Shown: positions 19,942 through 60,054 of the stretch, one piece after another
How the letters are laid out: every line of letters begins with the position of its first letter
Position numbering within the stretch: the stretch's first letter is position 1
Assembly (NCBI GenBank): GCA_040285855.1
Contig: JAUFOQ010000006.1
Span: 930,001-994,000 of the forward strand
Source of the DNA: Eukaryota sp. GEM-RC1
Lineage: Eukaryota
Length of the DNA stretch: 64,000 nucleotides
Direction of reading: 5' to 3'
Position numbers and translations under genes: made by a program
Notes under the pieces: model-generated
Told to the model about the DNA's origin: nothing
Database searches by the model: none
The model's input: only the letters and a program-made list of their open reading frames with translations

Positions 19942-20344
19942 CAGGGCCTGGAAAAATTGAATTGAATTGATTGCCAATGTCAATGATTGGTATTTATCCA
20001 ATGCCAATGTCAATGTCTCAAATTGAACCAATCGACTTTGCATGTTTTAAATGAATCCAATCAATGTTTGCATGTTTGATATTGGTCCAATATTTCAAGT
20101 ATTACCACTACTACTAGTAGAACAGCCAAATCATACGATTTATGTATTCTGTTCGTTAAAAACATGTTTAAACGACTATCTACATCAGCTGCATATTTTA
20201 TTGCGGTTTGCAGTGTTGAGTGAAATAGGATAATACGCAAAATATAATTGGCCAGTATTTTAATGTTTGAACATTATACCAATCAATGTTTCATACCAAT
20301 GTATTCAAGTATGTGTATTGGCAATTCAATTTTTCCAGGCCCTG
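19942..20344. mobile_element. MITE with perfect 23-bp TIRs
   Basis: CAGGGCCTGGAAAAATTGAATTG...CAATTCAATTTTTCCAGGCCCTG, flanked by direct repeat GTTTGTTAC (19933-19941 and 20345-20353). Confidence 0.88.
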
Positions 20345-20487: not shown

Positions 20488-21685
20488 TCAACAAGAACCT
20501 CCACATTCCAATTGACGGGTACATCCTTGACAAGATAATTCCACTTCCAATTCAACAGCTTCACTTGGAAATTTAGACACCAATTCATTCATAACTTGCA
20601 TCAATTCCTCAGTTTCAGAAGCCATTTCTAACTCAGCGCTTTCAAATCGCTTGGCAATCTCACTATGAACAGATGGAGGGAAATGAGCGTCCAACAGCTT
20701 AAACAGTACTATAGTTAGAACAATAACAAGTAAACATACTCTGATCTTCCTTGTAAATATGTTGAGTCAAATGAGAAGCGTACTCATTACTGGACTCTGA
20801 AAACCCAACCACATCTTCTGCTTCAATTGCTTCCTTCATTGAAGTCATTAGTTCTCGGTTGATTTCATGTTCAAGTTCCATTACTTCGATGGGACCACCT
20901 TTAACTGGGAATCCTGTATCTTTGGCAAATACAAACAGAATGTTCTCTTCTTTGGCATGATGAACGCGGTCAGCAAAGCCAGTAAAGAATTGAACAAATG
21001 AGTTGGCTGTGGTGGTATCGAAAGCAGTATTGAGGGAATGGCGGCAAAATGAAACTAGAGCAGACAGGACAGCGGATATCTTACGATGTTCTTCTTGGAG
21101 GTTGAGAGTTGATGTAGAACTGTTCTGTGAAAGTCCGGCATCACGAATTCCTGGACACGAAGGTAGCTTAGGAGCAGCATATTTGTCATTGAGTTGATCA
21201 GCAATAGAGAGAAGTTCATCATTCAGCTTGACGCTGGATATTTTCTTCATGAGCGAAAGTACATCAAACTCACTAAATCCTTCCTCGAGCATAGGAGCAA
21301 GAATGTTATCCTCCTTATAAGCGTGGTTTTTGAGCAAGTCAATGTACTTTTCAGCAAAGGCTTTAAACTCAGAGCTGCCATCATGAGACAAGCACTCTCG
21401 CATGCTAGAGATTAAAGCGCGAAGAGCGGTGTGTTCTTTTAGCATGGCCTTGATGGGTTCGGTTGCTATATGCTTTGACAAAGCTAGGTCAAAAATGAGG
21501 TCTTCTTCCATGGCATGGTGGTATTTGTCAGCATAATCTGAAAAAAACCGTGCGAACAGACCAGCATCTGTACTATCAAATTGGGAAAGAATGAACTCCT
21601 CGAAGGATTCCAGAACATCGGTAATCAACTTGTGATGGGAAGCAAGAAGGTCGGTTGGTGAATCTATTGACAGAGAAACGGACAT
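20488..21685 (-). CDS. Tandem hemerythrin (HHE) domain protein, one intron
   Basis: Two H...HHxxEE...EH...HxxKED motif sets. A 31-nt GTATGT...TAG intron (20709-20739) joins ORF 20488-20694. Cys-rich C-terminal tail. Confidence 0.9.
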
Positions 21686-21803
21686 GAAGTGGAAAGGTCT
21701 AGGTCCTATGGAACAAGCTTTGACATAAGGGAATGGGTCGAAATTGTAATGTGCAGAGTTCGTGAGATGACGAGCAAAAAACGTTTTGTTGGAACTTCTA
21801 CTA

Positions 21804-21919
21804 CTGTGAATTTCATTCCAAATGCATAAGGGCATAACCCTTCACATTTTCATGAGATAAACCACAGTTGACAAAGTCCTCATTCGCAAAGTCTTTTAAG
21901 ACGAGCTAACTTCATAGAT
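21804..21919 (-). ncRNA. Candidate Fanzor omegaRNA scaffold (copy 1)
   Basis: 116 nt between the Fanzor stop and the element end, identical in copy 2. It folds into two stem-loops; the terminal one is a 64-nt CTGTG...CACAG hairpin (21804-21867). Confidence 0.75.
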
Positions 21920-24807
21920 TCAAGATTCCTGATCTTTCTGGTTTACGTTTACGTGTGAGTCCTTGGGTACATATTTCTTAGGCTTATTTGGACAAGTTGC
22001 TCTGTTATGCCCAGGTTGAAAACATATACCACACTTGTTAGGACCTCTGACTTTTGTTAGAGGACGCTTTGCCTTACCCTTACCCTTACTCACAGTCTTT
22101 TTCTTAGGAATCTGATCTGTATTCCCGCCATCCACGACAGGTGTTGTTTGAGATTTTGGTCTCTCGAGGATGGCAGGTCTACCTTGACCTTGAATTGTTC
22201 CATTTACAATATTGTAAATATTGATAGCAGAATTGAAATCTCTATTCCAGAGGACATGACATTTAGCACATTCAACTAAGCCCCATGGTGAGACTTTGTT
22301 GTTCTTCAATCTTTCTTTCGAAAATGTCAACTGGTCTGTCCATTCTTCATCAAAGTTACGCTCCACAATATTGTCTAATTGATTGTGTTCAATAATTTCC
22401 TTTTTAATTCTTTCTCTTCCTTCTGTAACTTCTTCTTCCAATTAGGATCAGTGACTTTGATCCTTTCAGGATTGGAACAGATACCTTCGTCATTTCTGGA
22501 AACACATGCAGAGCAACATTTGCTGGTCTTAAATTCATCAACTAGGAACACTTTAAATCCAAATTTTCTCAATAATTTCCGAATTGAAGCACCTTTTACA
22601 GTCGATGCTTTACCTCTTCTTCGACGAAAAGCAGTGTCGTTCCAGTCTCCATACCCAACAACGACTTCATCTGGGTTTCCAAACTGGAGAGTAAATCTGT
22701 GAAGCATGTTTTTCTCACTTCGTTCCTTTCTTGAATACTGTGTTAAGCGTCTACGTCTAAACCACTTTTCTTCGTAAATTCCTTCAGTATTTCTTTGATC
22801 AGTAGTGGGTGATCGTAATAAAGAACAGGTAATTTCTTTACCAAGAACAAAAGCAGAATACTGAGTCAATTCACAAGATTTACTACCTGGCGAGTTAGAG
22901 CCCCATTGATCTAAAATTTGTTGCCCATTTATGTCAATGCGTCTGCCATCTGGAATGTGAATAAATTGGGTAGAGTATTGTTGTAACCGTTCAGATTCAG
23001 ATAAACGGTGGAGATTATATCGTCTTATTTTCTTCTCCAGCTTCCTCTTCTTTCTCTTAGCTCTTTTTCTTTCCTTCCTTGTTTTTTTCTTTTCCATGGA
23101 GACTTGTTCATATCTGCCTTGCGCTCCCCAGCAGTGTATCTGAATACTTTCCAATCATCACGATTTTTCAACTTGACAGTTGATGGTTTGTCAATAGTGG
23201 GTGCGTCTTTCCAATCCTTCAATTGATTTTTTAATTTTTTCAAGCTTCCTTTTTTCTTTGATGATTTTGGAGAAATCTTTCTTCTTCTGAGTTTGGCTGA
23301 TGTATCGAAACCTTCGATTTCCTTTTCCTCCTTAGATTTTAAAGAAGCACAGTACATCAAATCATGCTGATTAGGATCAATAGCAACAATTCTTTTGGAT
23401 TTCAAATTTAAGTTTTGAATTTCTGTGGAACTCAAAGAATCAATGTACCTTTCAGTAGCTGTGTAGTCAACTGCTTTCACCTTCTTATGAGGATTTCCTC
23501 TCGCATCAAGCAGATCTTTCCGCATCATCATTAAATTACAGCTAACTCCATCTGTAGAAATAGAACTGTATTTGAAGTCATGAGACAATGACTTTGGAAG
23601 ACACTTTGGTTTCAAAACTGAGTGCCAAATATCTTTTCGAACGTCATCAAAGCTACCTTTAATTTCTGATGCATAAACTTCTTTAAACCATGTAGTATCC
23701 AATCTGATATGATTAGGAATCAGTGATTTTGTTAGAGGAAAAGGATTATTGGCAGTAACACCAGGACAAGAGTCCTCAACAAGACGTTTCAAATACACTG
23801 CATGACTTAAGAATTTCAAAGGATCTACTTTTTCAGCATAATAGATTGTTTTCTCCATTTTACCTTCAAAAAAAGTAAACAAATAGTTAAAAAATAGTAA
23901 ACTCAGTCTAGAATTGGGATCAGGAAACACTTCAACATCTTGAAAATTAATTTTTGAAATTTCCCCATTAATGATCAACTGTCTGACTTCATTAAGCTTT
24001 GTACACAACTCTTGTCGTAGATTCTTATCAGTAAGCTTGTTAAGTCTATCTTTTTCAGGGTAACCAAATTAAATACTTGAAAAACATATTCATGAAAGTG
24101 ATCACTCATGTTAGTCTTGTAATTCGTTATAATTTCAGTAGCCATGTAATGCAATATACGAGATAAACGATGACTACTGGGAAACACAATCCTATCAAGT
24201 CCAACAGATCGAGCAGCTATTTCTAAACGAGGAATATAATACATCAAGAAGTGTTGAGCAAACTGATTTTGAGTTGAGCCATCATTTGTGTTAGAAATTA
24301 TGTTTTCTAAAGATTCTTGCACAGTCTCAATATGATTCTGATTGTTTACAAGTTTGTTGTCCCTAATCGTCATCATAGACAACACTTGTTCCATTGATTT
24401 CAACGTAAAAAAATTCTTCCAGTCTGGCAATTCAATTTTGGCAGTTTGAATTTTAGTCCAAAGGTCAGGTTCAGGTTTAGGTTCATCACTCGCATCTTCA
24501 ATATTTTCTAATTTAATAGGAGGAGTAGCAGCATGGATAGACTCTGAATGTACATCTGTTTCTTCATCAGTTGACTCATCTGTATCAGAATTCATTTCTT
24601 CCTTAACAGTTACATTTGGAACAGTAGCAGGCAGTAACTTCTGAATGTAACCTATAATACCTGAATGGTGAAAATTATGAACAAAAAATGTTTCAAAAAG
24701 AGAGTACTACGGACTCTTACTTGGTGAGCTCTCTTAACACGAGATTCAATAAATTTAACCTTCGCTTTGGACACAACATTGTCTAGTCGTTTCTTAACCA
24801 CTTTCAT
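21920..24807 (-). CDS. Fanzor1 (TnpB-like RNA-guided RuvC nuclease) with C-terminal CCHC knuckle, frameshifted
   Basis: ISTDGVS; RuvC-I IVAIDPN; VGYGDW; RuvC-II VDEFKTSKCCSAC; ECAKC..WNRDFNSAINI (RuvC-III); GRP; CGICFQPGHNRATC. Spread over several ORFs joined by -1 shifts. Confidence 0.9.
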
Positions 24808-27800
24808 TGGTGACTTTGAACGTAATGTTTGTTTTTTGGGATCCAATAGGTCAGCCAACAAGTACTCAATCAGAGGTAATTGTTGAATTGAGTTCATCAA
24901 CAATAGCGGTCTTGTCGATTCCTTGGCCCAAAGTTCATTTACTTTCTCCAAATTTCTTACAAATTTCTTTTTAATCTTATCGACCTTCACTTTGGGATTG
25001 TCTGGAACTAAAACATTAATACTGTCAATTATGCCATGCAAGTTTTGGACATTATTGACCAATTGAACTTCATCAGGATCAGAGTCATGATTAAGTTCTT
25101 CCAAGCGTTTGACAGTTTCATTTTTAGAAAAATTATTCATTTCAAGAAAAATTTGAACAACATTTTCCAAAAAACGGCCACCAGTAAAGACATAAAAATT
25201 CTTCAGTACAGCATTCAAATCGAGACTAAAAAACGGACCAAAAGTTGTTTCCTTACACCATTTGTTGAACCAAAAGGGAATGTAGGGTTTAAATTCTGGA
25301 AAAGTAAACGTTGTATTGATTTTGAGGACTTGACAACGTGATACAAGAAAGGGAAATGTATCTAAGTGAAAGTCATAACTCACAAACAATCGTGGACAAT
25401 GTTGAGTAATGAAGGAAATGAAGTTTTTAAGCATACTGGATTCACTATCTGAAATATGTAAGGTACACAAATCCAAGTTTGTAGTATCAAAGTTGCCATG
25501 AGAAAATAAATGTTTTTCATTAAACTCATTGTGATCAATGATCTCGATGGAAATTGATACAATAGGATCAACAGAAGAATCACGTTTAACTTCTAATTGA
25601 TCTTCAGCTTCACCTTCAACAGTTTCAATGTCATCATCATCTTCTTGAACAAGTTGAACATTTCTGCCATTAATTCTTTCTTTTTTGGCAAAATCACTTT
25701 GAACATGAATTAAACAAAAGTTGGTAGATTGTTCCAAAGTAGAGGGGATTTAAGAAAGTCTTGAATTTGTATTTCTTCTTCTATAGGCTCAGTGTGTAGA
25801 TTTACTTCCATTTTTGGATTTCTTCTTGAATTGGCGATGGATACGACATAATGGAGGCCTTAATTTTGGGTGGTAGTTCAGATGGTGGTACTTCAGATGA
25901 TTCCAATGTGGACATACGGCGGTGAGTCTTTCGTATTGGAGTGTCACCAGTTGAAACAAGGGAGCTGGTAGTTCTAAATTTATTTCGTTGAATTAAAGGT
26001 GAACCTCGTGGTGATGGAATATCAGAAATTTTGGCCTTTCTTTTTTTAGTGCTTAAACCAGTAGATGCTTTAGTGCTAGCAAGACGCTTACCTGAGATTG
26101 GTGACGCAGAAACACGCGACAACTCAACAGGACTAAAAGTTTCAAAATGTTCCAAAATTTTACTTCGAGACTCGTGAACAGCAATAGTGGTATTACCCAG
26201 CAGTTCTTTAACATCAGTCCACCTTATGACCACAGATTGATCTAAATTCATTAAAAGATCAATGTATTCGAGAACACAAAAACCAGAGTCAGTTAGAGTA
26301 TGTTTGATATTTGATGGAATAAATTCTATATTTCTGGTTTCACACATTGACAACACTGAATAAATTTTTGACACAATTGTAAATAAATTGGAGGAAGATG
26401 GTGCAACTGGCATTTGGTTAGCAGGAAATTCTCTGGCATAATCATCCTCAACGTAGGTCGGATCAATGAATAAAATATGACTTGTAGGAGATGAAATGAT
26501 CAGAATAATTAAACCCCAATGACGACCATCAGCAGTAAGATCACACATTGCACTATTGACAGGAACAAGTAGCATTTGTTGGTTGTTTTGACCACATTGG
26601 AAGAATTTCTGCGTCAAAAAATCTGAAAATGGATATTTATTATAGGGTTGGTCACCATATAATAACGGATATAAATCAGTTGGCCCAATTACATAGTCAT
26701 AAAAGATTAAACCTGTTGATTCCACAAGTATTTTGGAATATTTGATGAACAATTGATCGTCAACATAAGTAAACAATTTTTGAATCTGTTTACGGAGATC
26801 TGCAGCATTAAGTTCAATGTTAACTTGGATTAAAGCACGTTCAATAGAGATCAAAGATAGATTGATGCCATCCCTTGAAATGAGTTCAACAAATTTTTGA
26901 ATATAACCAATAACATAAATACCACAGTCATTAGGAGTCTGTGTCTTGGTGATGTTGACCCTCTGTACGTTCAATGTTACTTTCCTACATAATTCATCTA
27001 CAACAGAACTTAGATAAGAAGAACCAACAATTGGATCCACAAATATCGCGTTGTTTTCCGCACAGTCTATTACCATTAGACCCCAATGAACTCCTCCAGA
27101 TCCACCTGTTGTATTCATAGCATCGTTGAGAGGAACAGCGAAGTATCTGGTGCTTCTCTCCCGGGCGTCATCAATCTTATTTTGGCAGTATCCATCAGTT
27201 AAAAAATCTGACCACATCTCATCTGGAGCAATGAAATAGCATTCCCAATCAAGGTTTGCTTCTTTGAATTGGTGTTTTGAGTATTCAGAAAGGGCGTAAT
27301 CATCTATCCATTGGCCAGGATTCAGATACTCTAGGGAGTCTTTGGACAACGGTCCGGGATTGGATTCCACGTCACCATCCATGGTGAGATCTTCTTTGAA
27401 TGGGGGACGGGAGGAGAAAACTGTACAAGAGAGGTCTAAAACACTTCGCGAGGAAGAACCACACACGGCATAGCTCTTGTTTTTAAGTATGTGTGTGTAG
27501 TTCATTGGAGGGGAATTGACACGGAGGGGAGAAACTGTACCATCAGCGAGAGAAGAACCACACACGGCATAGCTCTTGTTTTTAAGTATGTGTGTGTAGT
27601 TCATTGGAGGGGAATTGACACGGAGGGGAGAAACTGTACCATCAGCGAGAGAAGAACCACACACGGCATAGCTCTTGTTTTTAAGTATGTGTGTGTAGTT
27701 CATTGGAGGGGAATTGACACGGAGGTGAGAAACTGTACCATCAGCGAGAGAAGAACCACACACGGCATAGCTCTTGTTTTTAAGTATGTGTGTGTAGTTC

Positions 27801-28000
27801 ATTGGAGGGGAATTGACACGGAGGGGAGAAACTGTACCATCAGCGAGAGAAGAACCACACACGGCATAGCTCTTGTTTTTAAGTATGTGTGTGTAGTTCA
27901 TTGGAGGGGAATTGACACGGAGGTGAGAAACTGTACCATCAGCGAGAGAAGAACCACACACGGCATAGCTCTTGTTTTTAAGTATGTGTGTGTAGTTCAT
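24808..28000 (-). CDS. Repeat leader + 2A + two Ulp1/C48 (SENP8-like) protease domains, N-terminal to Fanzor
   Basis: WIDD..., VPLND...GGVHWGLMVID, FVDP, QTPNDCGIYV. Second domain VPVN...HWGL...FIDP...DSG. In copy 2 this region is one ORF running into the Fanzor N-terminus. Confidence 0.85.
27350..27391 (-). other. 2A (StopGo) ribosomal skipping motif
   Basis: DLTMDGDVESNPGP matches the D(V/I)ExNPGP consensus. Confidence 0.9.
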
Positions 28001-28026
28001 TGGAGGGGAATTGACACGGAGGGGGA
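27453..28026. repeat. 99-bp tandem repeat (~5.8 units) encoding the 33-aa leader repeat
   Basis: Near-identical units differing at one G/T position. Each encodes MNYTHILKNKSYAVCGSSLADGTVS(H/P)LRVNSPP. Confidence 0.95.
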
Positions 28027-28445: not shown

Positions 28446-31400
28446 CTATTCCCTCATTTTGTATTCCACATCTGTAAGATTTTGCCTCAAAAACGCGTGG
28501 AAAGTATTCCACTTTTTGCTTCGGGGTTGGTCGTTATCCATGATAACAAACAGTGCGTTTTCAGTTCTTTGTTGAATAAAAGGAAATGTTGATGGCGTAT
28601 CTGGAAGATCAATAATAATTGATATCTGACACCTAAATTCGGAAAATTTTTCCAAAATTCCCCAATTAGCAAACAATACCGAGTTTGGTTTCGTGTTGAA
28701 CTGGTTCATTGTGAAATTATAAGCACTTTGAGTGACAGGTTTGGTTTTGCTACTGGCAAATTGGAGGGCATTAATGGTACCGTTCTTGGTTTCTTCACTA
28801 AACAAACTGCGATACGTCAGTACATCTTGTCTAGATTTAAACAATACAGCAATTTTTTCATGGGGTAACTTCCTTGTTTGGAGGATACCATGTAATAACC
28901 TTTTCAAAATTGAACTGATATCCGCAAATTTGCAATGAACAAGGTTGAACTTTTTTCCTTTCAGTCGAATAGGAGGTCCTTCAGCTGGTGATAGTTTGTT
29001 TGGGTGGGATGATTTATCCAAACTTCTACAATATGATTGGAAATCAATTTGTTCCAAAGTTGTATCACCACCTGAACGACACAAAGTCATCACTTCTCCT
29101 GACACATCAACAATTCCAATTGTCATTGAAGTATGAGAAAAAATAGTTGACATGGCTCTTGTATGCCCGTAGATATACAAAATGAGATTTCTTTTTGTTT
29201 TGCACTTATACCTATACACGTTCCATCATTAGTGATACACAAAAATAATTCAAATGCTTCAATGAAAATACAGTCTACCAGACTAATTTTCTCACTTGTA
29301 GGGTAAAAATCATAGACAGATTCAAGACAGTGTATGACATTGCTTTCCCCATCAGTTCTTATGAGATCTACGGATGACTCGCTTAAAACCAAAACAAAAC
29401 CTTCTTTGTAAGCATGAAGTTTGGTGAAGAGCTTTCTTGGTCTATCTTTTGGTTCACGTTGCAAGTCAGCATGAAATTGAATATCTGTCACACTGACGGT
29501 GTAATCAGTAATGTAAATGAAACTGTCACATAAGGTTACAATATCCTTTAATCCTGTTGTTTGACTAGTTAAAGTCCGCCTGACTCCAGACATTTCAAGT
29601 TCGTATATAAACTTTTCCGTCATTACCAAGCATCCCCTAAAATAGTGACCAGGCAAAAATATTGCAACAATTCTTTCATCAAGTTGGTGTTGCGTATATT
29701 TTCCATTTTCGGTACCATTTTCTACGCTGTCTTCATAAGATGACTCATTGTATAAAGGTAGATTAAGGAGTTTAATCATTGACTCTTTAACATAAATAAC
29801 AAATAATCCATCAGACGAAACGTCAAATGGACTATCACTATTGATTTTGTCCAAAATTGAACTGGATTTGTGATCTGTAAGATCAAGAATCATAAGATAG
29901 TATGAGCCATTGAGAAGACAACGAGCAACAATTTGAGTTGTCGCCGGTATAATTACACACTGTTGAACGACAAGTTGTACAAAGGTAAATTTACCAGCTA
30001 TGTTAGGTACAGGTCTTTGAAAACAAATTTTTTGAGCCTTCCATGACGCAATAGGTTCTGTACTATACAAAGCAGTAGAAGAAGTAGTAAAAGCAGTAGT
30101 AGAAGTAGTAGTAGGAGCAAGAGTAGTAGAAGCAGTAGGAGCAAGAGTAGTAGAAGCAGTAGAAATAGTAGAAGCAGTAGAAATAGTAGGAGGAACTGTA
30201 TCTTGCCAATACAATGTAATAATAGATCCTTTTCCAGTAACAAAATAAATTTCTGGCTTTTTGAGAGAAGGAAAAATTTTGATAATACCTGCATCCCAGT
30301 TTCGTTTAAAACGATCATTAAAAAAGACAGGAGCGGCTCGATTATCAGTATTAAAGAAACCAATACGATTCTTTCTAGTCACAAAAATGATGACTTTGGG
30401 ATGACCATATATTCCACATGCATCAACAATACAATCATATGGCTTAGGTCCTTCCAACCACCCCTGTGGTCTTAACAGAAAATCTACTTTGATTTGAGAT
30501 TTTGAAACCGTCACAATATGTAACGAAGTCTTTGCAACCACGAGTCGTGAATGAATATCATTTGGAATTACACCAAATTTGAATCCACCCGTAGCATAAC
30601 TGTGCATTTCAGCATCTGAGAAGCTGACGGCATCTTTATTTGCCCAGAAAACCGAACTACTTGTTAATAACAAATGTGTATCAAAGGAATCTTCCAGTTT
30701 TACAAATGTGGAATCAAGGGCTACTTCGTTTCTTGGAAGTAAGGTAAACGCATCGTTACCAGTCCTATCGGGAAGTTGTACAGATTTCAAATAACCACCA
30801 ATGGTACCGACAAACAAACGGTCATTATCTGTACTTACTAAAGATGTTGACTTGATTTGATTTTTAAATTCACGGTACATTTGATTCTTATACGAAGCAT
30901 TATGTGCTTGCATGTATGTGATCATAACTTGATCAGCGGTGGGTGTGAATACATAAAAAAAAGTAGGCCTGGGTTGGTGAACTGCTAGTGACAGTAAATC
31001 ATACTTTGGCAAATGTAAACGATTTTGTAAAGTATCCTCTCCCACTGTCCAAAGAACTAAATCATTTCCAGTTGTCAATAATATAATGAAACTACCAGTT
31101 TCAGTTATTACGGCATTTTTAATGTCAGATGTAGATGACCAAGTGGTTTTGGATTTGACAGATGTCGCAAGTTGAGCGAGAATGTCAATTGTCTTTGTCT
31201 TTACAGGTTGACGTTCTGAAGAAGGAGGGTGAGAATGAGCTGAAACACTGACTTGATGCCCTAATAAAAGTTCATCTTCTTTTGAAATTGTTTCTAAATC
31301 AGATTCTTCCATATACTCCTCTACATCACTGGTTCCAAATGTTTCAGACTCCGAGTCCGATACAATTTTTTGTTTTTCAACATTACTATACAGTCTTTTC

Positions 31401-34400
31401 CAGTTGAATCAAACCTTGCTTCATACTTACGAATTGCTTCCTCAATATCAAAATTTCCGCAAACGTTACACGGCCCAGTGCATAATTTAGTTTTAACGGT
31501 TTCATCTAACCGAAATGGTACACTACCAGCAGCATCATAGTCGGATGCGTCCACATCAATAATTGTTCCAGTAGGTTTCATGGGGGACGATTTAATGGCC
31601 TGAATCTGATAGAACAAACGAGTAGGATCCATTTGTAATCTTTCACACAAATAAACACCTAATCTACATCGATTCAGGCAACCAATCATTGATACTAAAG
31701 GTTTCAGAACAGAATCATCGTATTCATAGCATATTTCCGAATTATGCGCAATATCAAATGATACCATTTGTGTGGTAATACATCCGTAGCTGAACACACG
31801 AACATACATCAATTGTAAAAATAAGTTGGACAAAGTACGTTCAAAATAACAGCACAAAGTTGGAAGTGCCTGTTGCGGAGTCACATATACACCTGACCAT
31901 TGATCACATTTATCGACAGGTAATCGAGTGAAAAGAGAGTTGTAGAATTTGAGATCAATACGACCACTATGACCGTTCAGAGTACTGTACTTAATAGGAC
32001 TTTGATAGTAGTAATTTGAGGCTCTTAAACGCACATTAACGGAGAATGTTTTTTCTTTACATAGTAGACCAAAATTTAACAAATCTGCAACATTTACACC
32101 GGCACTGTTACTGGAGTACCATTGATTAGTTTTGAAGAATACTGAGGGATAGGGGTGTATATTCAATTTGGGGAAAAACGGATGGGGTAATTTAGATGAT
32201 GAAGAATTTTCAATCATTTTGGCCAAAATAAGTGAAATAACTCTGTTATTTTTACAATTACTCGCTGTAAGTTCGATTTCCTTGTCGGATTCAACAGAAA
32301 GTTCTAATTTAACAGCATTTGTGTCCCGCTGTCGCTGTTTTGAAGACTCCAATAAACTATTCAATTTTGTTATCTTTGCGTTTAATTCATCAACAGAAAC
32401 ACTTTCAAATAACGTCTTTTCAAATGGTTCAACAGGCAGCTGAGTTGAAGATCCTTGTAATGCCATGTCTTGTTGCATACTTCGAAACATTATTGAATTT
32501 TTCGGGTAAGACGACGCAAACAACAAAGTCAATTGTGAAAAATCGAAATTAGATGGAACAAGTGTTTGATAAAAAGATTGATCCTTAAAATCACTCCATT
32601 CTTTTGATTTAGATCCTGTTTCCTCTCTTTTTCATGTTTATGTCCTGTATGGGCCATTTTGTACCCTTGTAATAAAGATTGGACCTGTTTGGCTTTAGCT
32701 TCTAACGAATCAAAGGTTTTGGACAATCGATTCAATTTGGATTGGAAGGTTTCACCCATACTTGATACACTACGCTTAATAACACTCAATTTGGACAGCA
32801 ATCTATCGCACCAAAACTTCAACTTCCTAAGGTCAAAATATTGTAAAATCTTCCAATTGATTGTACCGGATAACAAGGCACATAAAAATTTGAACATCAT
32901 ATTCAGGTCTGAAAATCCGTGATCCGTTCCATCATCATACAAATTTAGAAAATTTCCTAGTTTTTCAACTTGGTTGATGTATTCTGTGTTGAACTTGAAG
33001 TTAAACAAATTGAAATTGAATGAACATAAAAGAATTAATCCGGCAACAACTTGATCTTGAACAAAACAATTGAATACAAAATGAAAATGTTCATGAGAAT
33101 CAGCAAGAAGTGATCCCAAAAGTCCCATAGACGTCAGTTTGTCATTGATAAAACGACTCTCAAGGATATTATTCAGGTAGAGGGAGTAAACTGTTTCGTT
33201 TACTGAAAAATCAGAAACGATAGTAGGCATGGCATTCAGAAAATCATTTGGATGAGATGAAATTTGTTTAACTTTCAAAATACAATCTTCCAATGGTGAA
33301 TCTAGAATTTGTGGATCTTTTGTCGGAGACCTTGAGTACTGACCAATAAAATTAAAGTCAAATAATCTAATACAGATCCCAGGTCTTGTCCGTCCGACTC
33401 TTCCAGCACGTTGAGTAGCAGAGCATTGTGAAATGTTTGCCATAACCAATTCTTTTCTGAAATTTGGAACTCTTTCTAACCCAGTATCCAAAACAATTAC
33501 TGCCGAGTCGATCGTGATTGATGACTCTGCGATGTTAGTTGCAGCAACAATCTTGAATTCATTGTTTTTACACTTGCTTGCTGCCTTGAGTTGATCCTCT
33601 CTGCTGATCTCAGAATACAAAGGATAACAACAGTTCATAGGCAAATCATTATTGTGATAACATGCTTTAACCAGACTTTCTACTTCAAAAGAACCAGGTA
33701 AAAAAACAATTAATGTTATACCTGGAACATCTGACTGTCTTGTATGAAGTTTTGTTAGTACAAAGTATTTGACAACAATTTTGTAAATAACAATTATCAA
33801 TTGCAGGAGTGCGTCTGAGTTAATAATCGACGGGTGAAGTCTCTGATCTACTTTAGATTCAAAGTGTTTTTTATAATTTACCACTTCTGCACGAAAATCA
33901 TGTTGATGATCACAGACAGCTTCTCGAAATCGAGGGGGAAATCCTTCAGTAAGTTTTGAATACCAGTCATTAGTTTCGAAATTCTTAAAGTCGAAAACGT
34001 TCAGGACTCTTGAGAATTGACCAGTGTCAAACATAAGGTTTTGTTGTTCTTTAAGTAAATCAGTCTCTGTCCATTGATTATCAGGGAGCAAAGTGTTTAA
34101 AAACTGGGTTAAGTTCAGCAGTTGTTGATCCAATAGTTGCGGATGACAAACCACGTATAATGCCCGAGTTTTTTAAATTAATTTTCATTACTGTGAGTAA
34201 CAGATCGACATCTATAGTTCTGTCATGAACTTCATCCACAATGACGACTTTGTAAGTAGAAACAAATGAATGCTGATTCATCAACAACATGAGAGTTAAA
34301 CCAGTTGTTTGATAATGAACCAAAGTATTGTCTGAAAAATTGTATACCCCACCACCACAGTGATATCCAGCAATGGGGTAATCGTAAATAAATTTACTAC

Positions 34401-36542
34401 CCAGTCGAGGTCTAGTTAAGGAGTTAAGAAATTCAGACAAAAGATTGCCGAAGGTACCGTTGGTTGGGAAACAATGACTTTGCTAAAAAAAGTAAGCGCA
34501 AAAATAACAGGTGACAGTGTAGATTTTCCTGATCCAGTTGAACCAGTGATCATATAGGGTAAATCATAACTCCGATCAGAATTACAATAACACTTGATTA
34601 AATGCTTTAATAGTTCAGTAAAACTATTCTTTCCAGTAGAAGTCGAGACAAAGGACAATTTATGATCTCGTTGAGCATGAAATAGAACATTCATCAAACT
34701 AGACAATGCGAAATGGTCTACATTGTGTCTACTAGCATATTGTTTCCAGTGAGTGATGATAATTGGAGTAATTTGAGTAATAAGGTCGCATTTTAAATCC
34801 ATCAGCTCAGTCATAAGATCATCGAAATTAGTATCATGACGGTTTACCTCAATTGGTTCAATAGCATCAACAGCATTAACATCAAGGAGAATTTCGGTAA
34901 GATCTTCGGGTGTTTCTTCAACATCTTGTAATAAATCAATAACTTTGGCTTTCTCTGTCTTATATTTCAAAGCATCTTTAATTGCTTGTTCAACAACTTC
35001 TTCATGTGTTGTTCCATTGAATATATAGCTAATGAAAACAAATGGGAAGTTCATTAGATTTACAAAGGGTTCAAAACAATTTTCAAATTCTGAAGTGGAA
35101 ATAATGTAACTTTGATAACCTAGCATAAATACCAACAAATAAATTGAAGAAATTTGTTGATTTCGGTAATTCTCTTGATCAGTTTCATTTGAAAATAAAT
35201 ATGTCTTGGCAAAGACATAAAAGCGATAGAGTGATCGAAAAATCCAGGTATCTTGTAACTTTGCATCAACATTGAGTAATCGGGAAGCATAGTTTTCAAT
35301 TCTTACAGACATATCAATAGATGTATTATTAAAATCCTGTACTTGTTCATATTCATCAGCTTCGTCAGTTGTTTGTTCTGAAAGAACAGCTTGGCCATCG
35401 GCAGCTTCAGCATATTCTACAATTTCATTGAGTAGTTTTTCCAAGTAATTTTTGTTAAAATGTTTTGGTGGGGTCAGATCTCGCAGCCAAGTTTTTACTT
35501 CTCTTGCTGAATCAACTGTGAATGGGGAAAGAGAATCTGGCGTTGGAAAGGTATCTTTAAAAAATTTAGATCTTTGCAAATACTGATGACACAGTGTTAG
35601 TGCTATCGTCAACATTGTTGTTAACGAAAGACAACAGGCAGGATTTACAACGCGAATGAATTTCGAGAAATCAAGAGTATGAGCGGTTAAACAGCATTGG
35701 ACGGGCCTGGTCGAATCATGCTGTTGTGGAAGTATACCAGGCTGTCGGGGGAGCATACATTGATTACAAATGGCGTAACTTGAACATTGTTTATCAATTG
35801 TCAAACGTTTTTGTGCAGAAAATTGTAGAAGTTGTTGCGATGGTAAAACTTTCAGGGACGGCAAGTCAATGGAGGTGAAAACTTCATTATGATATTCTAG
35901 AAACTCAACAAAAACATGATCGACTTCTGGGGCAATCAGAGATTCAAAGAAGGATGTAATGTAATCATAAATATTTTTAACAGAAAGTCTTTTCATTGGT
36001 AGATCAAAATGAGCAAGAGCATTGTCTAGTTGAGACTTACATTCAGTAAAAGAAATGGGATCACGATCAGTCATTGCTTCTGGAACAGACTGTGAAGCAT
36101 TCAGGTGATAGTGTTCCAAGCAAGTACATATACGATGTCCTGTAATGTTCTTCACAGGATGGATTACAGACTCATGTGAAATAAATGCACAGCCTGAGTG
36201 AGCGGAGGGTGGAAATGGACCGGGATTTGACTCTACATCACCGTCCATTGTGAGATTTCTTAACCAACTATGGGATGGAGAGGCATTAGATTCAGTAACA
36301 CGTACAAAACAACAATAGTTCAAGGCATGACTCTTCTTTACGAGCATGTTATCCCTATATGTTGTATTGGGGGAAGGGGGCGTAGAAAGAGAGGACTTCG
36401 CTTCAACAACGGGAGGAGAACAACAACAACAATAGTTCAAGGCATGACTCTTCTTTACGAGCATGTTATCCCTATATGTTGTATTGGGGGAAGAGAATGG
36501 CATTTTGAAACGATGGGGAAGATATATCCGGAGCAATTTCAT
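28446..36542 (-). CDS. Repeat leader + 2A + DEAH/RHA-family helicase polyprotein (six ORFs joined by frameshifts)
   Basis: GSTGSGKST, SQPT, IVDEVHDR, SAT, VFLPG, ATNIAESSITI, DTG and QRAGRVGR motifs. Downstream ORFs overlap in shifted frames and include a beta-rich (propeller-like) region and a degenerate helicase-C-like domain. Confidence 0.8.
36216..36266 (-). other. 2A (StopGo) ribosomal skipping motif
   Basis: WLRNLTMDGDVESNPGP. Confidence 0.9.
36309..36493. repeat. Two ~68-bp direct repeats, 117 bp apart, in the helicase leader
   Basis: PNTTYRDNMLVKKSHALNYCC is encoded twice. Confidence 0.9.
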
Positions 36543-37229
36543 TTGATGTTGATCTTGATGCTTCTGACTTCACTTCACCACCTTGGATTTTACATCACCT
36601 TAAAAACACTTCTTTAACACGTTATCCCCATGGATGTTTACGTCTGTCTAACGTAATTCATGCTTACTTGGAGTTCATCATGTGTTGTTCTGGATGAGAT
36701 CCATGACTTTTTTTTGAGTTTCCACCTTCATTTACTGTACTCTTGGTCAAAATCGAATCGTATTTGCGGTTTTTAATGATGAGATATTTATGTAATGTTG
36801 GCTTCACAATAAAATATGAAATAGATAGTTACAGTTGAAAACATCCTATACATTTATAAAAATAGAATATAATTCACCATATGGCTTATGAGTCGTTATG
36901 ATGCCGTTGCCGTGACGGATATGCACCTAAACCCACCACGATCTGATGATGTTGTAGTAGATCAAATGCGCAAATCAACTTTCTCCAATTACACACGAAT
37001 CCAGGAATTTCAACAGGTTGTCAACAACCACCAGACATCTCTTCTCACTTTTTTTCACTATATGGTCAAAAAATCTTTATTGTATATGATGGTTTCTTTC
37101 ATGTACATAATGAAGGGAAGATATATCTAAAGTTCAAAAGGATTCTTCGTAAAATTGGATTTTTGACAAGAGACTTAAGAGGAGGGAGTGGAGTCGAAGT
37201 AATCTCAGTTGTTCCAGTTGATTCTGATT

Positions 37230-37799
37230 CTAAGTCATTGCTTGAGTTACTTGATTCTTCTTTTCATTCAATAAGTTTTCTTCTCTAACTGCCTTTGGAG
37301 ATTTAGACTTTTTCATCTTAGAAAGTCTTGCAGAACATGAAACTTTTTGATGTTGTTCATGTTCTGCAAGATCAGACAAGTCTATTGCTGAGTCACTTTG
37401 ATCTTGAATCAAAATATTATATAAATTTTGAGAGGACAAGGAAGTAGTGGTACCATTCTTTTCTTCAAGAATATGAGTTTCTTTGTTAATAAAGAATTCA
37501 ATGTTTTCCTTAAGATTATCACCAACAACATTTTTAAACCATGTTGTATTGTTGGTGGACACTGCGATATGAGAAGTACTATCAGCAGCTCGGGTGATTA
37601 AGATATAATCTCCATTAATTCCGAGATTGCAAGGTGAAGTTGAAGGAGTTGATTTTGTCTCAGTAAAAGAAAAGACATTGTATACATCTTGGTGTTTAGA
37701 TGCATACTTCCTCTGATAAGCAGAAAGACGACGTTTCCGAGACAGAACGTTTGTTGATGAGTTCATGCAAATTTTGCCGGGAAACAAATTCTCCTTCAT
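37230..37799 (-). CDS. Hypothetical element protein
   Basis: 189-aa ORF with an NLS-like RKRR. It probably continues through a -1 shift. No family recognised. Confidence 0.4.
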   Translation of the reverse strand: MKENLFPGKICMNSSTNVLSRKRRLSAYQRKYASKHQDVYNVFSFTETKSTPSTSPCNLGINGDYILITRAADSTSHIAVSTNNTTWFKNVVGDNLKENIEFFINKETHILEEKNGTTTSLSSQNLYNILIQDQSDSAIDLSDLAEHEQHQKVSCSARLSKMKKSKSPKAVREENLLNEKKNQVTQAMT

Positions 37800-38590
37800 C
37801 GGAATCTCAATGTCTTTGAACGAATCTTCTCTTGAAGTGATGTCAAGTCTGTTAGTACAATATCACGAACACTGCAACAGAAGTTTGATAACCTTATGCA
37901 ATTGTTGTCATTGTACTTCGTTAGGAGATGATTCTGTGACCACATCTATATCAACTTCCTTAAAAGATCTTGTGTCAACTCTGTTCTACCCTTCATCAGA
38001 AACTTCTAATGTTGAGGAAGTCTTAATCAGAGTATCTCATCTTTGGCAGTTCACGCCTCTACTCAACAGTTTTCTCAACTGGACAGGTTTAATTGATATT
38101 CTTCTTCATTGTTGTCTCAATGATGATACTTGTTTATTTTTGAAACATTTACATTTGCTGATCAATAGTTTTGCTTGTTTAGTTGGTATATTATTTTGTC
38201 ACAGTTCTCGATCTTCTACAACTTTATTAATTCCTGTACTCCTCCAAAGTTCACTTCATGATGATGGTCATTTAAGATTTGATTATTTTAAAAAGATTGA
38301 GGATAAATTGTTGCTATTACTTGAGGACAATGATTATTATCTATCTGTTTCAAAGTTTGTTTTGATTTTTGTTAACATTGTTTTAGCAAAAGGTAATTGT
38401 AATGATTATACTGAAGTTGTCAATTTGTTTAGTTTTATTTTTAGAACGAAGTGATTTTGTTGACTTGAAACATGTTTTGACTTGGAAAATGTCAGGAAAT
38501 GATGAGATTGATGTGGAGAATTTATGTGATGAGTTGTTGCAGTTTAATGATAGTGTAGTGAAGTATGTTTGTAAGTATTTGTGTAAGTAG
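37765..38590 (+). CDS. Hypothetical element protein (frameshift at ~38440 in copy 1 only)
   Basis: ORFs 37765-38454 and 38402-38590. The 3' part is continuous in copy 2 (59321-59797). Confidence 0.45.
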
Positions 38591-38596
38591 ATACAT

Positions 38597-38846
38597 ATTG
38601 TTACACATCTTGTATTACACATCTTGTATTACACATCTTGTATTACACATCTTGTATTACACATCTTGTATTACACATCTTGTAAAACACATCTTGTAAA
38701 ACACATCTTGTGTTACAAATGTTGTATTACAGATCTTGTGAAACACATCTTGTAAAACACATCTTGTAAAACACATCTTGTGTTACAAATGTTGTATTAC
38801 AGATCTTGTGAAACACATCTTGTATTACAGATCTTGTGAAACACAT
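38597..38846. repeat. 14-bp minisatellite (TTACACATCTTGTA and variants)
   Basis: Tandem 14-mers starting just after the stop codon at 38590. Confidence 0.95.
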
Positions 38847-39647
38847 CCAGTCTTGTATCTACATCCACATTTTCTTCATCCAAACTCATATCCACAACGA
38901 AGCCACACTCTGTTACTTCTCGTTCTTTAAGAGTTATGTGACTCCCCAAACTGAAGGCTAGTGACATTTGCTGAAGACATACACCCGATACACATGTTAA
39001 ATGCCATATTGTTACCCCTTGGTCTTTGATTCTCCTTCTTGTATAATAAACAGCTAGTGTCTCGTTTGCGTATCGTCGTTGCATATCTTTTATATGACAA
39101 CATCAAGACATGACAATTCTAATCCCAGTCAAACAGACTTACGCGTACTCTTTATTGTTTGGTCAATCCACTGCTTTACACTTCTCGCCAAACTTATCGG
39201 AAACACATTCACTCTTTTCCTCTTTTAACATTTTGTGTTGATTCTATTGGAAGACGGTGCTAGATGTATTAGTTAGTCGCTGAGTAATGTCGCTGAGTAA
39301 TATCATAATAGTTGGAAAGTAAGATTTGATCTATAAACAAGAAGACATAGATGTTAAAACGAAGTTTACTATTACAAAAAGAAGTCAGAGATGATACATA
39401 TAAACATACAAACACACATCCTCCATCACTACTACTGGTGTGATATAGAAAATTCTTGCATATGAATCGTATGGAAGGACAAATGTTCACAGAATCAATA
39501 TAAAAGGACTTGAAGTCGTGAACTGCGGAAATGTGAGATTGTAATACCCCGACTGAAATACAGTCCCTGGATAAAGTCATAGTTTGAAGTGAAAGAGAAA
39601 TTTGATGAAGACCAAGTTTCCCTGCGCTCAAACAATCCATCAACTCA

Positions 39648-42144
39648 ATGGCACCAACCTCTTTACACAACATCAATCTCACAGATGACCAACGTGAGAT
39701 CTTTAACGCAATCACTACCAGCAGACACAACTTCTTTGTCACTGGTGGTGCAGGATCAGGAAAATCTTATCTTTTACATGCTCTCAAATACTGGTGGAAT
39801 AACGCAGGATCTCGTCTCATGCGTGCTAATGGTGAAATCTTCTTCACTGCAACAACTGGGGTTGCCTCAACTGTTTTTGGTGGACAGACCATACACTCAC
39901 TGTTTGGTTATAAGTTTATGAAAGAAGAAGAATCCATACATGATGTTATCAAATGTATGCCATCAAATGTCAAAATTTTGTTAAAAAATATTACTCCAAA
40001 AAATACAATGTTAATCATTGATGAAATTTCAATGTTATCCTCCAATTTGTTTCAACGGGCGAGTGACATTTTGGGCGAACTTATGCACACGCAAAAATGT
40101 CACTCTCCGAAGAAACCATTTGGAGGAATTCAGATAATTTGTTTTGGGGACTTTCTTCAATTAGCCCCTGTTGTGAAAAGTCTTGATGGAAAAGGAAATC
40201 GAAAAGTGGTAATTTCTGATTTCGCTTTTTCATCAAGAGCTTGGAACAATTTAAATTTTAAATATTGTGAACTGGCTGGAAGTATTCGTCAGCAATCAGA
40301 CTCAAAATTTTTTAATTTTCTAAATCAATTGAGATTGGGTCTGTTAGATAATTTTATGAAATCAATTCTGCGTACTCATTTCGAAACAGCAGAATCTGTT
40401 GAAAACCCAACAATTTTATACGGAAAGAATACTGATGTTGCTAGAGAAAATTTTAAACAATTCAAACTTCTGGCCAAAATTCAGATTCAATTGAATTTGT
40501 AGCTGTTGACAAATTCAATGAATCTGAATTAAAATCTCAAATCAGAAAAAGAAGTTCTAGATTTCCAGTCAATGAATCTAATTTGGAAAAATATTATGAC
40601 ATTGAAACTTCTGTGCTGACAAGTCGCTTGGATGACTTTGCTGAAAAAAAACTAGAATGCGTTGTGGGTGGACAAGTGATGTACACTCAAAATAAGCCTG
40701 AACTTGGACTAGTTAATGGTTCAAAAGGAGTTATTGTTAATTTTTCAGATTCATATATTGATGTTCGGTTCAACGCTGAAGCAGAACCGAAAAGAATCAG
40801 TCAGTCAAGGTTTGCTATCGAACACTTGAACGAAATCGGAAGACCTGTTCAAGTGGCGAAAAGAATTCAGTTTCCGCTAAGACCTTGCTGGGCGATAACA
40901 GTGCATCGATCCCAAGGTTTAACAATTGACGGGATTGAAGTTGCTATCCAGTTTTGGGAATATGCCCAACTTTATGTGACCTTAAGTAGGGTTAGGTCTT
41001 GGAGGAGTTTAAAGATTTTAAGTATTGGAAGAAGTTATCCGGTACCAAATTTGGAATTGTACCAATGGTATTATTCAACTTTTCATCCTGTTAAACCATC
41101 CACTATTGATTTGTATGTTTTGGGAAATCAACATTGTCTTCAACGAGATTTCAATCATTTTAATTCATTGTTTGCAAACTTTTGTGCAGAATCGAGTGAA
41201 CCAATTATGGATGATGTTGTTGTTCCTGAAATTGTTCATGGTGTTGATGAAATTGTTGATGAAGTTGTTGTTGATAATGTTGATGAACAAATTATTGAAA
41301 ATAATGATAATCAAATTATTGACTTTGAAAAAATCGTTTAAATCATTTAGACAAATCAAATTTATTTGAAACAGAAGCTGTACTATCAGGATCCGATTCT
41401 GGTGATGAATCTGATAGTGATACAATTTCAACAAGTTTAGATGATTTTGTTGTAAATGATGAACTTGAAGAAGATGAAACTAATATTCCTCCCAAATTTA
41501 TTAATTGTGACTCAATTTTTAACAAAAATTCCCCAGAGATTGGTGTCAATAAGTCTAAACTTCCTCAGTTACCACGAGGCAACATTACTCTACCATCGCT
41601 TCCCCGTTTGAAGAAAACCCCTTTACCAACGAAGAATTTATTATTAAAAAAGAATGTCAGTGCTGGTATAGAAAGAAAAAGTTCCCAAGTATTTCCTCTT
41701 ATTGATGATGAAAAGCGATTTTGTCTCAAGGAAGTTCAAACTGAAAGCTTTGAAAATGAAAAATGTGATTCCATATGTGAATATCAACAAACTGACAATA
41801 TGACTTATGAAACAATATCATTGTCTCCTATTTTGGAGTATAATCGTGTTGCTACTTCAAAACAATTGAGAGTGGACTTAACTATTGGAATTCAGTCAAT
41901 TGTCGATAATGTACTAGATTGTATTGGATCTGAATATGCATCAAGTATGGAAGTGAAAACAATAAGAAACTGTTACATTACCGATGTGATTAATAGGGAT
42001 AATGTTGATGAACGTTATTGTAGTGATGTGCTTGTGGAATTGTTTCATGTTTTGAAAGAGTATTTGAAAAATGATGAAAAGACTGGTATGTGTGTTTTAT
42101 TTGAATTATATTTAATTTTGAAAAAGATTGGAAAATATAGGTAA
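39648..42144 (+). CDS. PIF1-family (SF1B) DNA helicase with acidic C-terminal extension, two -1 frameshifts
   Basis: TGGAGSGKS, TATTGVAS, GQTIHS, IIDEISM, PFGGIQIICFGDFLQLAPV, RQ, LVNGSKG, RIQFPLRPCWAITVHRSQGLT and QLYVTLSRV motifs. Confidence 0.92.
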
Positions 42145-42160
42145 TTTTGATAGTTTCATT

Positions 42161-42520
42161 TTGTGTTACACATCTTGTAAAACACATCTTGTAAAACACA
42201 TCTTGTATTACAAATCTTGTATTACACATCTTGTGTTACACATCTTGTAAAACACATCTTGTATTACAAATCTTGTATTACAGATCTTGTGTTACACATC
42301 TTGTAAAACACATCTTGTATTACACATCTTGTGTTACAGATCTTGTGTTACAAATGTTGTATTACAGATCTTGTGTTACAGATCTTGTGTTACAAATGTT
42401 GTATTACAGATCTTGTGTTACACATCTTGTGTTACACATCTTGTAAAACACATCTTGTGTTACAGATCTTGTGTTTCAAATGTTGTATTACAGATCTTGT
42501 AAAACACATTTTGTGTTACA
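42161..42520. repeat. 14-bp minisatellite, same family
   Basis: Tandem TTACACATCTTGTA / TTACAGATCTTGTG / TTACAAATGTTGTA after the PIF1 stop. A related array lies at 42709-42798. Confidence 0.95.
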
Positions 42521-43262
42521 GAAAGCACTTGTAGTTTTGTAAATTCTAATATAAAATAGTCAACAATTCAAAAGATCGAAGGTGTTCTTTTCAGTCAACT
42601 CTAGACATTAATAGTGAATATCTTTCTTGGCTGGGTTAACACATTGATTAGTGAAGACAGATAAGAGTCATGTCTAGGTCAACAATTCATTACACATACG
42701 ACACTTTCATTACAAATGTTGTAGTTACAAATGTTGTATCACCAAATGTTGTAGTTACAAATGTTGTATCACCAAATGTTGTATCACCAAATGTTGTACA
42801 TGTAGTTATAACTTGGTGTCTTTGTGTCTTCTGATGAATGAAGCTTCATGGACTTGATGTCGTTGACCTTAGTCTCATTCCAGATAGCATCTGATAGAAT
42901 TGAAAAATGCAGTCAAAAATGACTGAAGACACAGCAGTGTATTACACGATCAGAGTTGTAGCAAACCTTAGTGTTTTCCTTTGGAGGATAAGATGTCAAT
43001 GTGATGTACGTGTAGTAGGATGGTTGTACAACGTTGAGTTTATTCATGACATGGTTGAACACGGTTCACAAGTCTAAGAACGAACACCTGCAAACACGTC
43101 TCTATCTTGAAAGAAGCTCAACACTGGATATCAAACGATGTATGGAATCCATCAAAGAAGGTATAAGTGAATCAGTTTGGGGATATGTGGTTATGGGGTG
43201 AAGAGTTTTTGGGGTAAAATGATTTTGGGGAGTATGCACCCCAAATGAATTCAACACTAGTA

Positions 43263-43898
43263 CACTGGTTTGTCTAATTAGTCTCATCAGCTAATTAGTC
43301 TCATCAGCTAATTAGTCTCATCAGCAATTTAGTCTCAGTGAGACTTATTCTAAAATTGACCTTTAAATTTTGTCAGTGAGACAATAATCCAAATAAACTC
43401 TGTGTATATTTCTATTATGTTTTGTTTTTCCTATGTCCTATCTTTGAGTACTGCTCTCATGTCTCTTCATAACCAATAGCTCTCAGTGTCTGTTTCCGTT
43501 TAAGCACGCATCTCTCGACCTCACAACCCTGCTGTTAGTATTTCCGACGAAGATAATTGGAATTCTGATGGTATTACGGACTAGATAAGCTGTAGTTAGA
43601 CTTGGACTCAGTTTTAGCAATTAGGCATCACTCAATTGTGCCTTGTTTTTGAAGAACATAAATGAAAATATTCGCAGTGTTTTTATGGGAATCATATTAT
43701 CAATGATCAATAGTTTTTCGCAATGAATACTAAAAAGCAATGGTAAAGTATTCTTGAAATTAGTCTCACCTTTTGAATTAGTCTCATCAGCAAATTAGTC
43801 TCATCAGATAAATAGTCTCAGTGAGACTAATTCTAAAATTGATGACGAAAACTTTCCTTGCAAATTAGTCTCAGTGAGACTAATTAGACAAACCAGTG
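43263..43898. mobile_element. MITE, Tc1/mariner-like (TA target duplication)
   Basis: 24-bp TIR CACTGGTTTGTCTAATTAGTCTCA at both ends, TA on each side, and subterminal AATTAGTCTCATCAG repeats. Confidence 0.88.
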
Positions 43899-46009: not shown

Positions 46010-46824
46010 TGTTCAATTTTCGAAAATAAACCAAATTTGAAAGGCCGGCCTAAACTACAGTAAAAACAGTTTACGTGTGCACTGTTGTGAAGTAAAATTT
46101 GAACACCATTATTTAAAGTTACTGAAGTAATTAATGTACGGCAAATGTGAAGTATAAGGTTGCTCAATTTACAAAAGTCTTCAGGAACGATGGACCATAC
46201 ATTAATTGACATAATCCACAGAAAATTAACTTCTGTAAAGACCTGGAACAATCAATTAAAGTGCTATATTTATGGTTTCGCCAAAAATTTACGTCATTGA
46301 GACAAATTGATGTTCTGATATTTCTATATGTAATTCAGCAGAACTTTGTTTATTCCTGATTCAGTTTCCCGATGTGGATTTTTACGACTAACTTGTATTG
46401 TACAATAATTTTACTGTCAATCAAGATCTTTGTTCAAACATTAAACTGTTTTTCACTAATGCATTTCTTCACGACAACAGCAAACAGTATACCTGTGAGC
46501 AGGAAACAACGAAATATCAAAAGAAAGACGTGTTTTTTAAAACACTGAAGATGTGTTATCAACAGCACCACAGCTCTTCCACAATTTGGTAACAATTGAC
46601 TCAATACTTTGGGACAAGGATTTGAACAGAGAATTGGTCAAATGGCACCACTACTAGTAGCATAAGTTCGATATTGGCACTTTCATCTTAGTTTCTGCAT
46701 TAGTGTCGTTCAAACTACATGTAGAGCTGTTTTGATCTAAGATAATAACTTGACACGTGTAGACACGAAAGACTAAGTGTTATCATCTTATTTTAGAGGA
46801 CATCTTCTAAAGCGAGCGCCTCCC

Positions 46825-60040: not shown

Positions 60041-60054
60041 CAGTCTTGTATCTA

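Follow-up and report, generated by a model that had tools for sequence, protein, structure and literature searches.

A predicted Fanzor1 omegaRNA scaffold at the end of a large polyprotein-bearing element in Eukaryota sp. GEM-RC1

Fanzor1 omegaRNAs, as described in the available text of PMC10432273, PMC11423790 and PMC10711439, measure 75–150 nt, follow the open reading frame (ORF) and comprise a short first stem-loop (SL1) with one or more further stems; they end in a stem and carry a variable flank of 14–15 nt. SpuFz1 of Spizellomyces punctatus is a single ORF of 633 aa in an element of ca. 2.1 kb with 30–33-bp inverted repeats and a 75-nt scaffold (PMC10432273, PMC11423790, accessible portions). 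A design of scaffold plus flank is already established for Fanzor1, and the RNA predicted below is itself of this ordinary kind. In the consulted part of PMC13565253, TnpB and IscB are the systems for which restorative homing is given as demonstrated; for Fanzors, only cleavage is. What a Fanzor does for its element is left open in the accessible text of PMC10432273.

The window analysed here is a 64,000-nt stretch of Eukaryota sp. GEM-RC1 (contig JAUFOQ010000006.1, positions 930,001–994,000) that holds two copies of one element. In copy 1, a Fanzor1 module lies on the minus strand at 21920–24460 (start approximate), with frame breaks at A/T runs. It carries the TDG motif, a WED feature (ISTDGV, 23561–23544), the RuvC-I DPN (23384–23370), the RuvC-II E (22542–22513), the RuvC-III RD (22246–22232) and a C-terminal CCHC knuckle (about 22033–21992), all on the minus strand, and the last frame of the unit matches Pfam PF07282. 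The gene model P0025, 99.5% identical to the last 389 aa of copy 2, was significantly similar among solved sequences only to SpuFz1 (E 8.5e-15) and PpFz1 (E 3.7e-9), and in the SpuFz1 alignment the catalytic motifs IDPN, DE(F/Y)KTS (here DEFKTSKC) and WNRD were in register. Its predicted structure (pLDDT 77, pTM 0.73) had seven fold matches with E values up to 0.001, all of them Fanzor1, and Fanzor2 first appeared at rank 15 (E 0.029). E442, the four zinc cysteines and R540 were invariant in all 88 alignment rows. The catalytic E stands six residues ahead of the zinc finger, a spacing given as a Fanzor1 feature in the available text of PMC13565253, as the TDG motif is in that of PMC10711439. 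The upstream protein is therefore a Fanzor1 with a D-E-D triad, because the SpuFz1 and PpFz1 matches, the fold matches, the E–zinc spacing and the TDG motif all indicate this class. In a 42-row tree built by quick tree search, it grouped with proteins of the same lineage (7 rows, SH-aLRT 96), and the Fanzor1 of viruses and metagenomes fell outside this group. Protein-led scans gave 25 loci in metagenomes and, from 127 viral ones, the top 80, with 24%–43% identity in the best segment.

The element boundary was defined from the two copies, which share an identical scaffold. After the Fanzor stop codon (TGA, 21922–21920, minus strand), the shared sequence continues for 116 nt, at 21919–21804 in copy 1 and 54067–53952 in copy 2 (both minus strand). 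These 116 nt end in ...TTCACAG and are the sole non-coding DNA between the stop codon and the boundary. Direct comparison reproduced the identity that an earlier, sequence-only reading of this DNA had reported, and beyond it the flanks, which begin with TA (copy 1) or CC (copy 2), diverge exactly as had been quoted. That reading had also called the scaffold conserved. The 116-nt identity is uninformative about constraint because the adjoining coding DNA matches just as perfectly, with identical runs of 700 and 451 nt in the ca. 1.15-kb coding stretch 23105–21955; the copies are 98.5% alike over 5370 nt (21804–27169 versus 53952–59311). Spanning up to 116 nt from the stop codon to the last shared base, the candidate scaffold falls within the 75–150 nt of Fanzor1 omegaRNAs. 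An Rfam search with it gave three matches, all far under the gathering scores (E 2.4–7.5). A 31-nt scaffold pattern had no match in the metagenome contigs, the scaffold as DNA showed no likeness to 105 related Fanzor loci (best E 3.0), and scaffold read-through peptides, sought among 258 proteins as a source of sequence variants, were not found. As a separate observation, an ATG at 21835, within the terminal hairpin, starts a minus-strand frame (20699–21835) that crosses the boundary into a two-domain hemerythrin gene; the gene's own start is probably 21685, with the element ca. 120 nt upstream of the gene.

The full 116 nt had a predicted folding energy of -29.1 kcal/mol (z -2.36), equalled by 3 of 200 shuffles, and this signal is due to the last 64 nt. 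These form the long terminal hairpin (SL2; 21804–21867, minus strand), with -20.4 kcal/mol and a z of about -3.6; one shuffle in 200 was as stable. Among 64-nt windows taken along the Fanzor unit, 3 of 150 reached a z as low as this or lower; one was SL2 itself, and the other two fell within a 99-bp tandem array. The five terminal pairs of SL2 had probabilities of 0.92–1.0 with the real flanks and means of 0.92–0.96 over 200 random flanks. When the element was cut at 476 other positions, a random flank was added and the same helix-closing criterion was applied, a helix closed on the last base at only six of these pseudo-boundaries, as against both real boundaries; the real end closed in 78 of 100 trials with random flanks. 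Thus, the long hairpin that had been proposed to close on the last shared base was borne out as a prediction, and the end of the scaffold next to the putative guide is a predicted double-stranded stem. The proposed first stem-loop fared worse. The SL1 region (21871–21915, minus strand) was no more stable than shuffles (z -0.31; 71 of 200 as stable) and has two competing folds, one with a six-pair GC/GUCU stem and the other with a longer stem. The two-hairpin fold drawn earlier came to -24.3 kcal/mol, 4.8 kcal/mol above the best fold.

The most likely reading is that the 116 nt are a Fanzor1 omegaRNA scaffold and that the next ca. 15 host bases are the guide of each copy, a prediction to which we assign a probability of about 0.7. 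It is favoured because size, position and terminal stem match those of known Fanzor1 omegaRNAs, and the upstream protein bears the Fanzor1 triad; of the scaffold as originally proposed, the first hairpin is the part that gained no support.

The element is at least 20 kb long and includes DEAH and PIF1 helicases. A second 2A-led reading unit with the DEAH-type helicase and further, unassigned domains (28449–36569, minus strand, frame-broken) is absent from copy 2; its 2A motif (36245–36216, minus strand) follows a 117-bp direct repeat, and a homologue search with this ORF recovered only two proteins, with the same organism label. A search of the Atlas with a 436-aa ORF gave only scores of 0.84 or less. 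The PIF1-like helicase occupies two plus-strand frames (39609–41338; PF05970, E 5e-33) and is also found in copy 2. A 14-bp satellite forms two arrays, at 38601–38847 and 42157–42520. Copy 2 (53952–64000, minus strand) matches 21804–27169, then jumps to 38113–41652 and runs off the window. It thereby shows a 10.9-kb internal deletion, whose joint (59297–59326) bears a duplication of 13 bp, a structure that fits, but does not prove, interrupted break repair. Within it, 60055–62388 is a 1167-bp tandem duplication at 99.9%, either real or an assembly artefact.

The candidate far end of copy 1 is a Helitron-like motif of a GC hairpin, 12 nt and CTAG (43225–43260, plus strand); it is unproven as an end, and hairpin-plus-CTAG motifs occur three times in the window over both strands. 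An imperfect inverted repeat seen by eye near 43257 was dropped, as it did not rank among the top 15 local scores. A MITE-like insert (43263–43898) lies two bases from the candidate end; it has terminal inverted repeats of 24 bp (CACTGG...CCAGTG), is flanked by TA at either end and contains 17-bp repeats. The scaffold had no exact match longer than 9 bp in 36500–44600 and none that stood out by local alignment.

Several element classes were considered. Helitron1 (HLE1) ends are defined by a 5′-TC start, a 3′ hairpin with CTRR and an A|T target (PMC11417382, available text). Here, the hairpin and CTAG at 43225–43260 are followed by T, but the other end is CTGTG, and the base before it is A (copy 1) or G (copy 2). 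Of the RepHel transposase (Rep plus PIF1) that also characterises HLE1, PIF1 is present, but no Rep family was matched. No Rep domain was found upstream of PIF1 or in the element frames scanned with Pfam, among which frame breaks could hide one. The asymmetric inverted repeats and T|T target of Helitron2 (HLE2) were not found when the scaffold was compared with 36500–44600, and a search for the marks of a DDE cut-and-paste transposon (terminal inverted repeats, a target duplication and a DDE transposase) gave no more than one weak 6–8-bp duplication candidate. Pfam detected no transposase family in the long element frames or in 32 selected short frames of 36500–44500 (31 of the 53 listed plus the frame at 37720–38451). 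The element was left unclassified because it agreed with none of Helitron1, Helitron2 and DDE.

These features bear on an alternative in which the hairpin serves solely to mark the DNA end of the transposon, like the hairpins of Helitron2 or IS200/IS605, and the true omegaRNA is missing or encoded at another place. The hairpin does fold on both strands, the opposite strand reaching z -3.45 and -15.3 kcal/mol, but the RNA strand is the more stable (-20.4 kcal/mol) and uses G-U pairs. PIF1 and Ulp1 domains such as those of this element occur in Helitron-like elements, and 5′-truncated Fanzor Helitron2 families with a 3′ hairpin have been described (PMC3627910, PMC11417382, in the parts available), whereas no Rep domain, TC 5′ end or 11–17-bp terminal inverted repeat was found here in the frames and ranges searched. 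In favour of this alternative, the family also contains more fragments of the Fanzor end (protein clusters of 26 and 18; the 30 rows listed bear 28 different locus tags) than of the upstream modules (exonuclease 11, PIF1 14 and DEAH 3 members). However, a triad-bearing Fanzor needs a guide RNA, and no other non-coding DNA precedes the boundary. We therefore regard a purely DNA-level role as unlikely.

The putative guides are 21789–21803 in copy 1, in host DNA upstream of the hemerythrin gene, and 53937–53951 in copy 2 (both minus strand); their length follows the 14–15 nt given in the available text of PMC10432273 and not the window. The copy 2 guide was predicted to be mostly unpaired (0.88). 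The flank of copy 1 was predicted to be sequestered on scaffold nt 38–52 (-36.6 kcal/mol in total), which speaks against a free guide in this copy as originally envisaged. The exact scaffold–guide border of copy 1 is uncertain because of this back-pairing. Neither flank recurred in the window with fewer than two mismatches over 15 nt, and neither a TAM nor an empty allele was found within it. For reading a TAM, the left-end candidates are 43260 and about 44229; copy 2 runs off the window. That such guides would target the empty allele is an idea borrowed from TnpB homing.

The same back-pairing could mean that the omegaRNA region is correctly placed but its border is not, lying a few to 14 bases further on owing to a target duplication or a longer stem, with one end damaged and the guides out of register. 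The next 14 nt of copy 1 lengthen the stem, and only 7 of 500 random 15-nt flanks paired as well; the figure for 20-nt flanks was weaker, 29 of 500, and the comparison was one of four of its kind. The sequence AGTAGTAG, which spans the copy 1 border, recurs at 44237–44230 as a weak candidate for a 6–8-bp target duplication, and Fanzor1 scaffolds include the target duplication according to the accessible text of PMC13565253 and PMC10711439. Nevertheless, this 8-mer is of low complexity and one among many short matches, and the helix closes exactly on the final shared base whichever of the two flanks follows. A misplaced border is thus quite unlikely.

Other features of the window lie outside the element. 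By eye, 19942–20344 was seen to be a MITE-like insert with inverted repeats of 23 bp (CAGGGCCTGG...) and what looks like a target duplication of 9 bp. A 200-aa ORF (53093–53695, plus strand), 250 nt from the end of copy 2, had no Pfam match; we take it to resemble the endonuclease tail of a non-LTR retrotransposon. At 46823–47675 and 50129–50982 lie two paralogous transporters of the SWEET-like (MtN3) type, with 88% identity.

The sequence-only reading had missed that the Fanzor is predicted to be the tail of a long polyprotein within this much larger element. Upstream of the Fanzor on the minus strand are a PolB-type 3′–5′ exonuclease-like domain (24900–25720, limits approximate; PF03104, E 8e-8 in copy 2) and two Ulp1/C48 protease-like domains (25950–27340, limits approximate; PF02902), of which the first keeps H-D-C and the second has S in place of C. 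They are preceded by a 2A-like motif, DGDVESNPGP (27350–27379, minus strand), recognised against the published 2A consensus as far as its source was available, and by the 99-bp tandem array, 5.8 copies in frame before the motif (27448–28024, minus strand). In-frame tandem repeats precede both 2A motifs of the element, the second having 117-bp units at 36308–36493, and the relative P0044 has a repeated peptide at its start, before its 2A.

Copy 1 has at least five frame breaks and copy 2 has three. Those examined sit at A/T runs of 5–7, and for each there is another model (P0241, P0250, P0248, P0024 or P0025), or copy 2 itself, in which the frame continues. Because of this, we infer a single frame of ca. 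1800 aa after the 2A, ordered 2A–Ulp1–exonuclease–Fanzor, with the proviso that gene models may hide invented introns, so that reading through the breaks is not proof of an intact frame. The longest gene model of the window family over the nuclease end is 644 aa, and none seen spans the whole polyprotein. In relatives labelled ‘Eukaryota sp. TZLM3-RCL’, 2A, exonuclease and Fanzor form a single ORF of 1394–1494 aa without Ulp1, and all seven proteins read, among 12 cluster members, keep the exonuclease motifs D-x-E, F-D and Y-x-x-x-D and the RuvC triad. In the alignment, the exonuclease of the window family has lost the four DEDD acidic residues, which are kept in the relatives P0044 and P0231. 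The exonuclease is apparently active in the copies of one isolate and dead in those of another, as judged from these residues. That the family is a relic devoid of working Fanzor, its hairpin persisting only since the copies are young, would accord with the frame breaks, the 10.9-kb deletion of copy 2 and the 644-aa maximum, but is very unlikely given that breaks at short A/T runs, each read through elsewhere, are expected of long-read errors and that the related single ORFs are whole.

With the 116 nt taken as an omegaRNA scaffold, the following course can be proposed. Transcription of the polyprotein gene would run past the element end, and trimming of the read-through RNA would leave the scaffold and its guide. 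As in SpuFz1, the long hairpin would place its terminal stem at the junction between these two. Fanzor from an intact copy, acting in trans, might load this RNA and cut DNA that carries a TAM and a guide match, which for a flank-derived guide would be the element-free version of its own locus. Repair from the filled allele could then restore or spread the element. The same hairpin may double as a DNA end signal for transposition.

A more far-reaching possibility, which we consider doubtful, is that a giant transposase-free element copies itself by RNA guidance. In such a scheme, the omegaRNA–Fanzor complex would cut the empty site, the fused 3′–5′ exonuclease would trim the break, the PIF1 and DEAH helicases would drive copying from the filled allele, and the 2A motifs would release the polyproteins. 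If true, the element would also contain a natural Fanzor–exonuclease fusion editor.

The organisms labelled GEM-RC1 and TZLM3-RCL are presumably free-living anaerobic metamonads; the taxonomy entry for GEM-RC1, the label that close relatives bear, gives no more than an unclassified eukaryote. In addition to the window family, a sister subfamily forms a cluster of 14 members, and a Fanzor tag (003645) three tags from a PIF1 tag (003648) suggests a third linked copy. No paper on Fanzor in metamonads was found, and an omegaRNA here, if the reading holds, would extend Fanzor1 to a protist lineage for which a search found no Fanzor paper. Engineered nuclease–exonuclease editors exist, and a nuclease fused behind protease and exonuclease domains would be their natural parallel. 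A single genome carries ca. 30 or more young copies whose flanks differ, and these would offer a ready test of the role of Fanzor for its element.

Judging by titles, the literature search found no paper on a fusion of Fanzor with a 2A peptide. None on Fanzor with an exonuclease domain in a polyprotein was evident among the matches listed, from their titles and the beginnings of their abstracts; catalogues in supplements and Repbase may hold the family. The words ‘fused’, ‘exonuclease’ and ‘protease’ do not appear in the available part of a 2026 review of the topic (PMC13565253). The Fanzor fusion and its carrier element look like a novel form of an established type of system.

Related Fanzor1 loci on metagenome contigs resemble the window in having a small stem and then a long stem straight after the stop codon, the long stem running up to the point at which the loci diverge, 66–126 nt post-stop. 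This applies to two sets (L003/L006 and L001/L007/L008), which differ from the window in their protein (30%–33% identity), their tree branches and their DNA, where no likeness was found; L001, L007 and L008 are, moreover, stand-alone ORFs of ca. 680 aa. The window hairpin is weaker than those of L003 (z -8.7) and L006 (z -7.6); that of L001 has z -2.2. In their own right, L003:1120–1242, L006:838–963 and L001:5433–5498 are strong candidate Fanzor1 omegaRNA scaffolds, with different sequences and the long stem kept. On viral contigs (L030–L105), many of the ca. 30 Fanzor1 loci examined have a short 3′ end finishing in ...GGTGTAAA, followed by unrelated flanks, a ready set for covariation work.

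Among described systems, SpuFz1 shares with this locus the Fanzor1 fold and D-E-D triad (PMC10432273, PMC11423790, accessible portions), as well as the layout of the scaffold, which follows the ORF and has a single long second stem that stops at the variable flank; a short first stem would be a further likeness. Unlike SpuFz1, the locus has a scaffold of up to 116 nt, no inverted repeat that we could find and an element of at least 20 kb, and its Fanzor, with a CCHC tail, ends the inferred ca. 1800-aa 2A–Ulp1–exonuclease frame. The Fanzor1-bearing Helitron2 elements CRe-1, CRe-2 and CRe-3 of Chlamydomonas are similar in their intact 3′ ends with a hairpin, their internal deletions, the occurrence of the Fanzor end in more copies than the rest and the lack of a transposase in the copy (PMC3627910, PMC10530073, in the text available). 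Here, by contrast, no asymmetric inverted repeats, TTTT target or Rep domain were found, and helicases, proteases and 2A motifs are present. As in IS200/IS605, where the TnpB guide comes from beyond the right end and the empty site is the expected target (PMC13565253, accessible part), the guide proposed here would derive from flanking DNA; unlike in IS200/IS605, no HUH transposase was found in the frames scanned, and the 3′ end is a predicted stem, not a pseudoknot, as in other Fanzor1.
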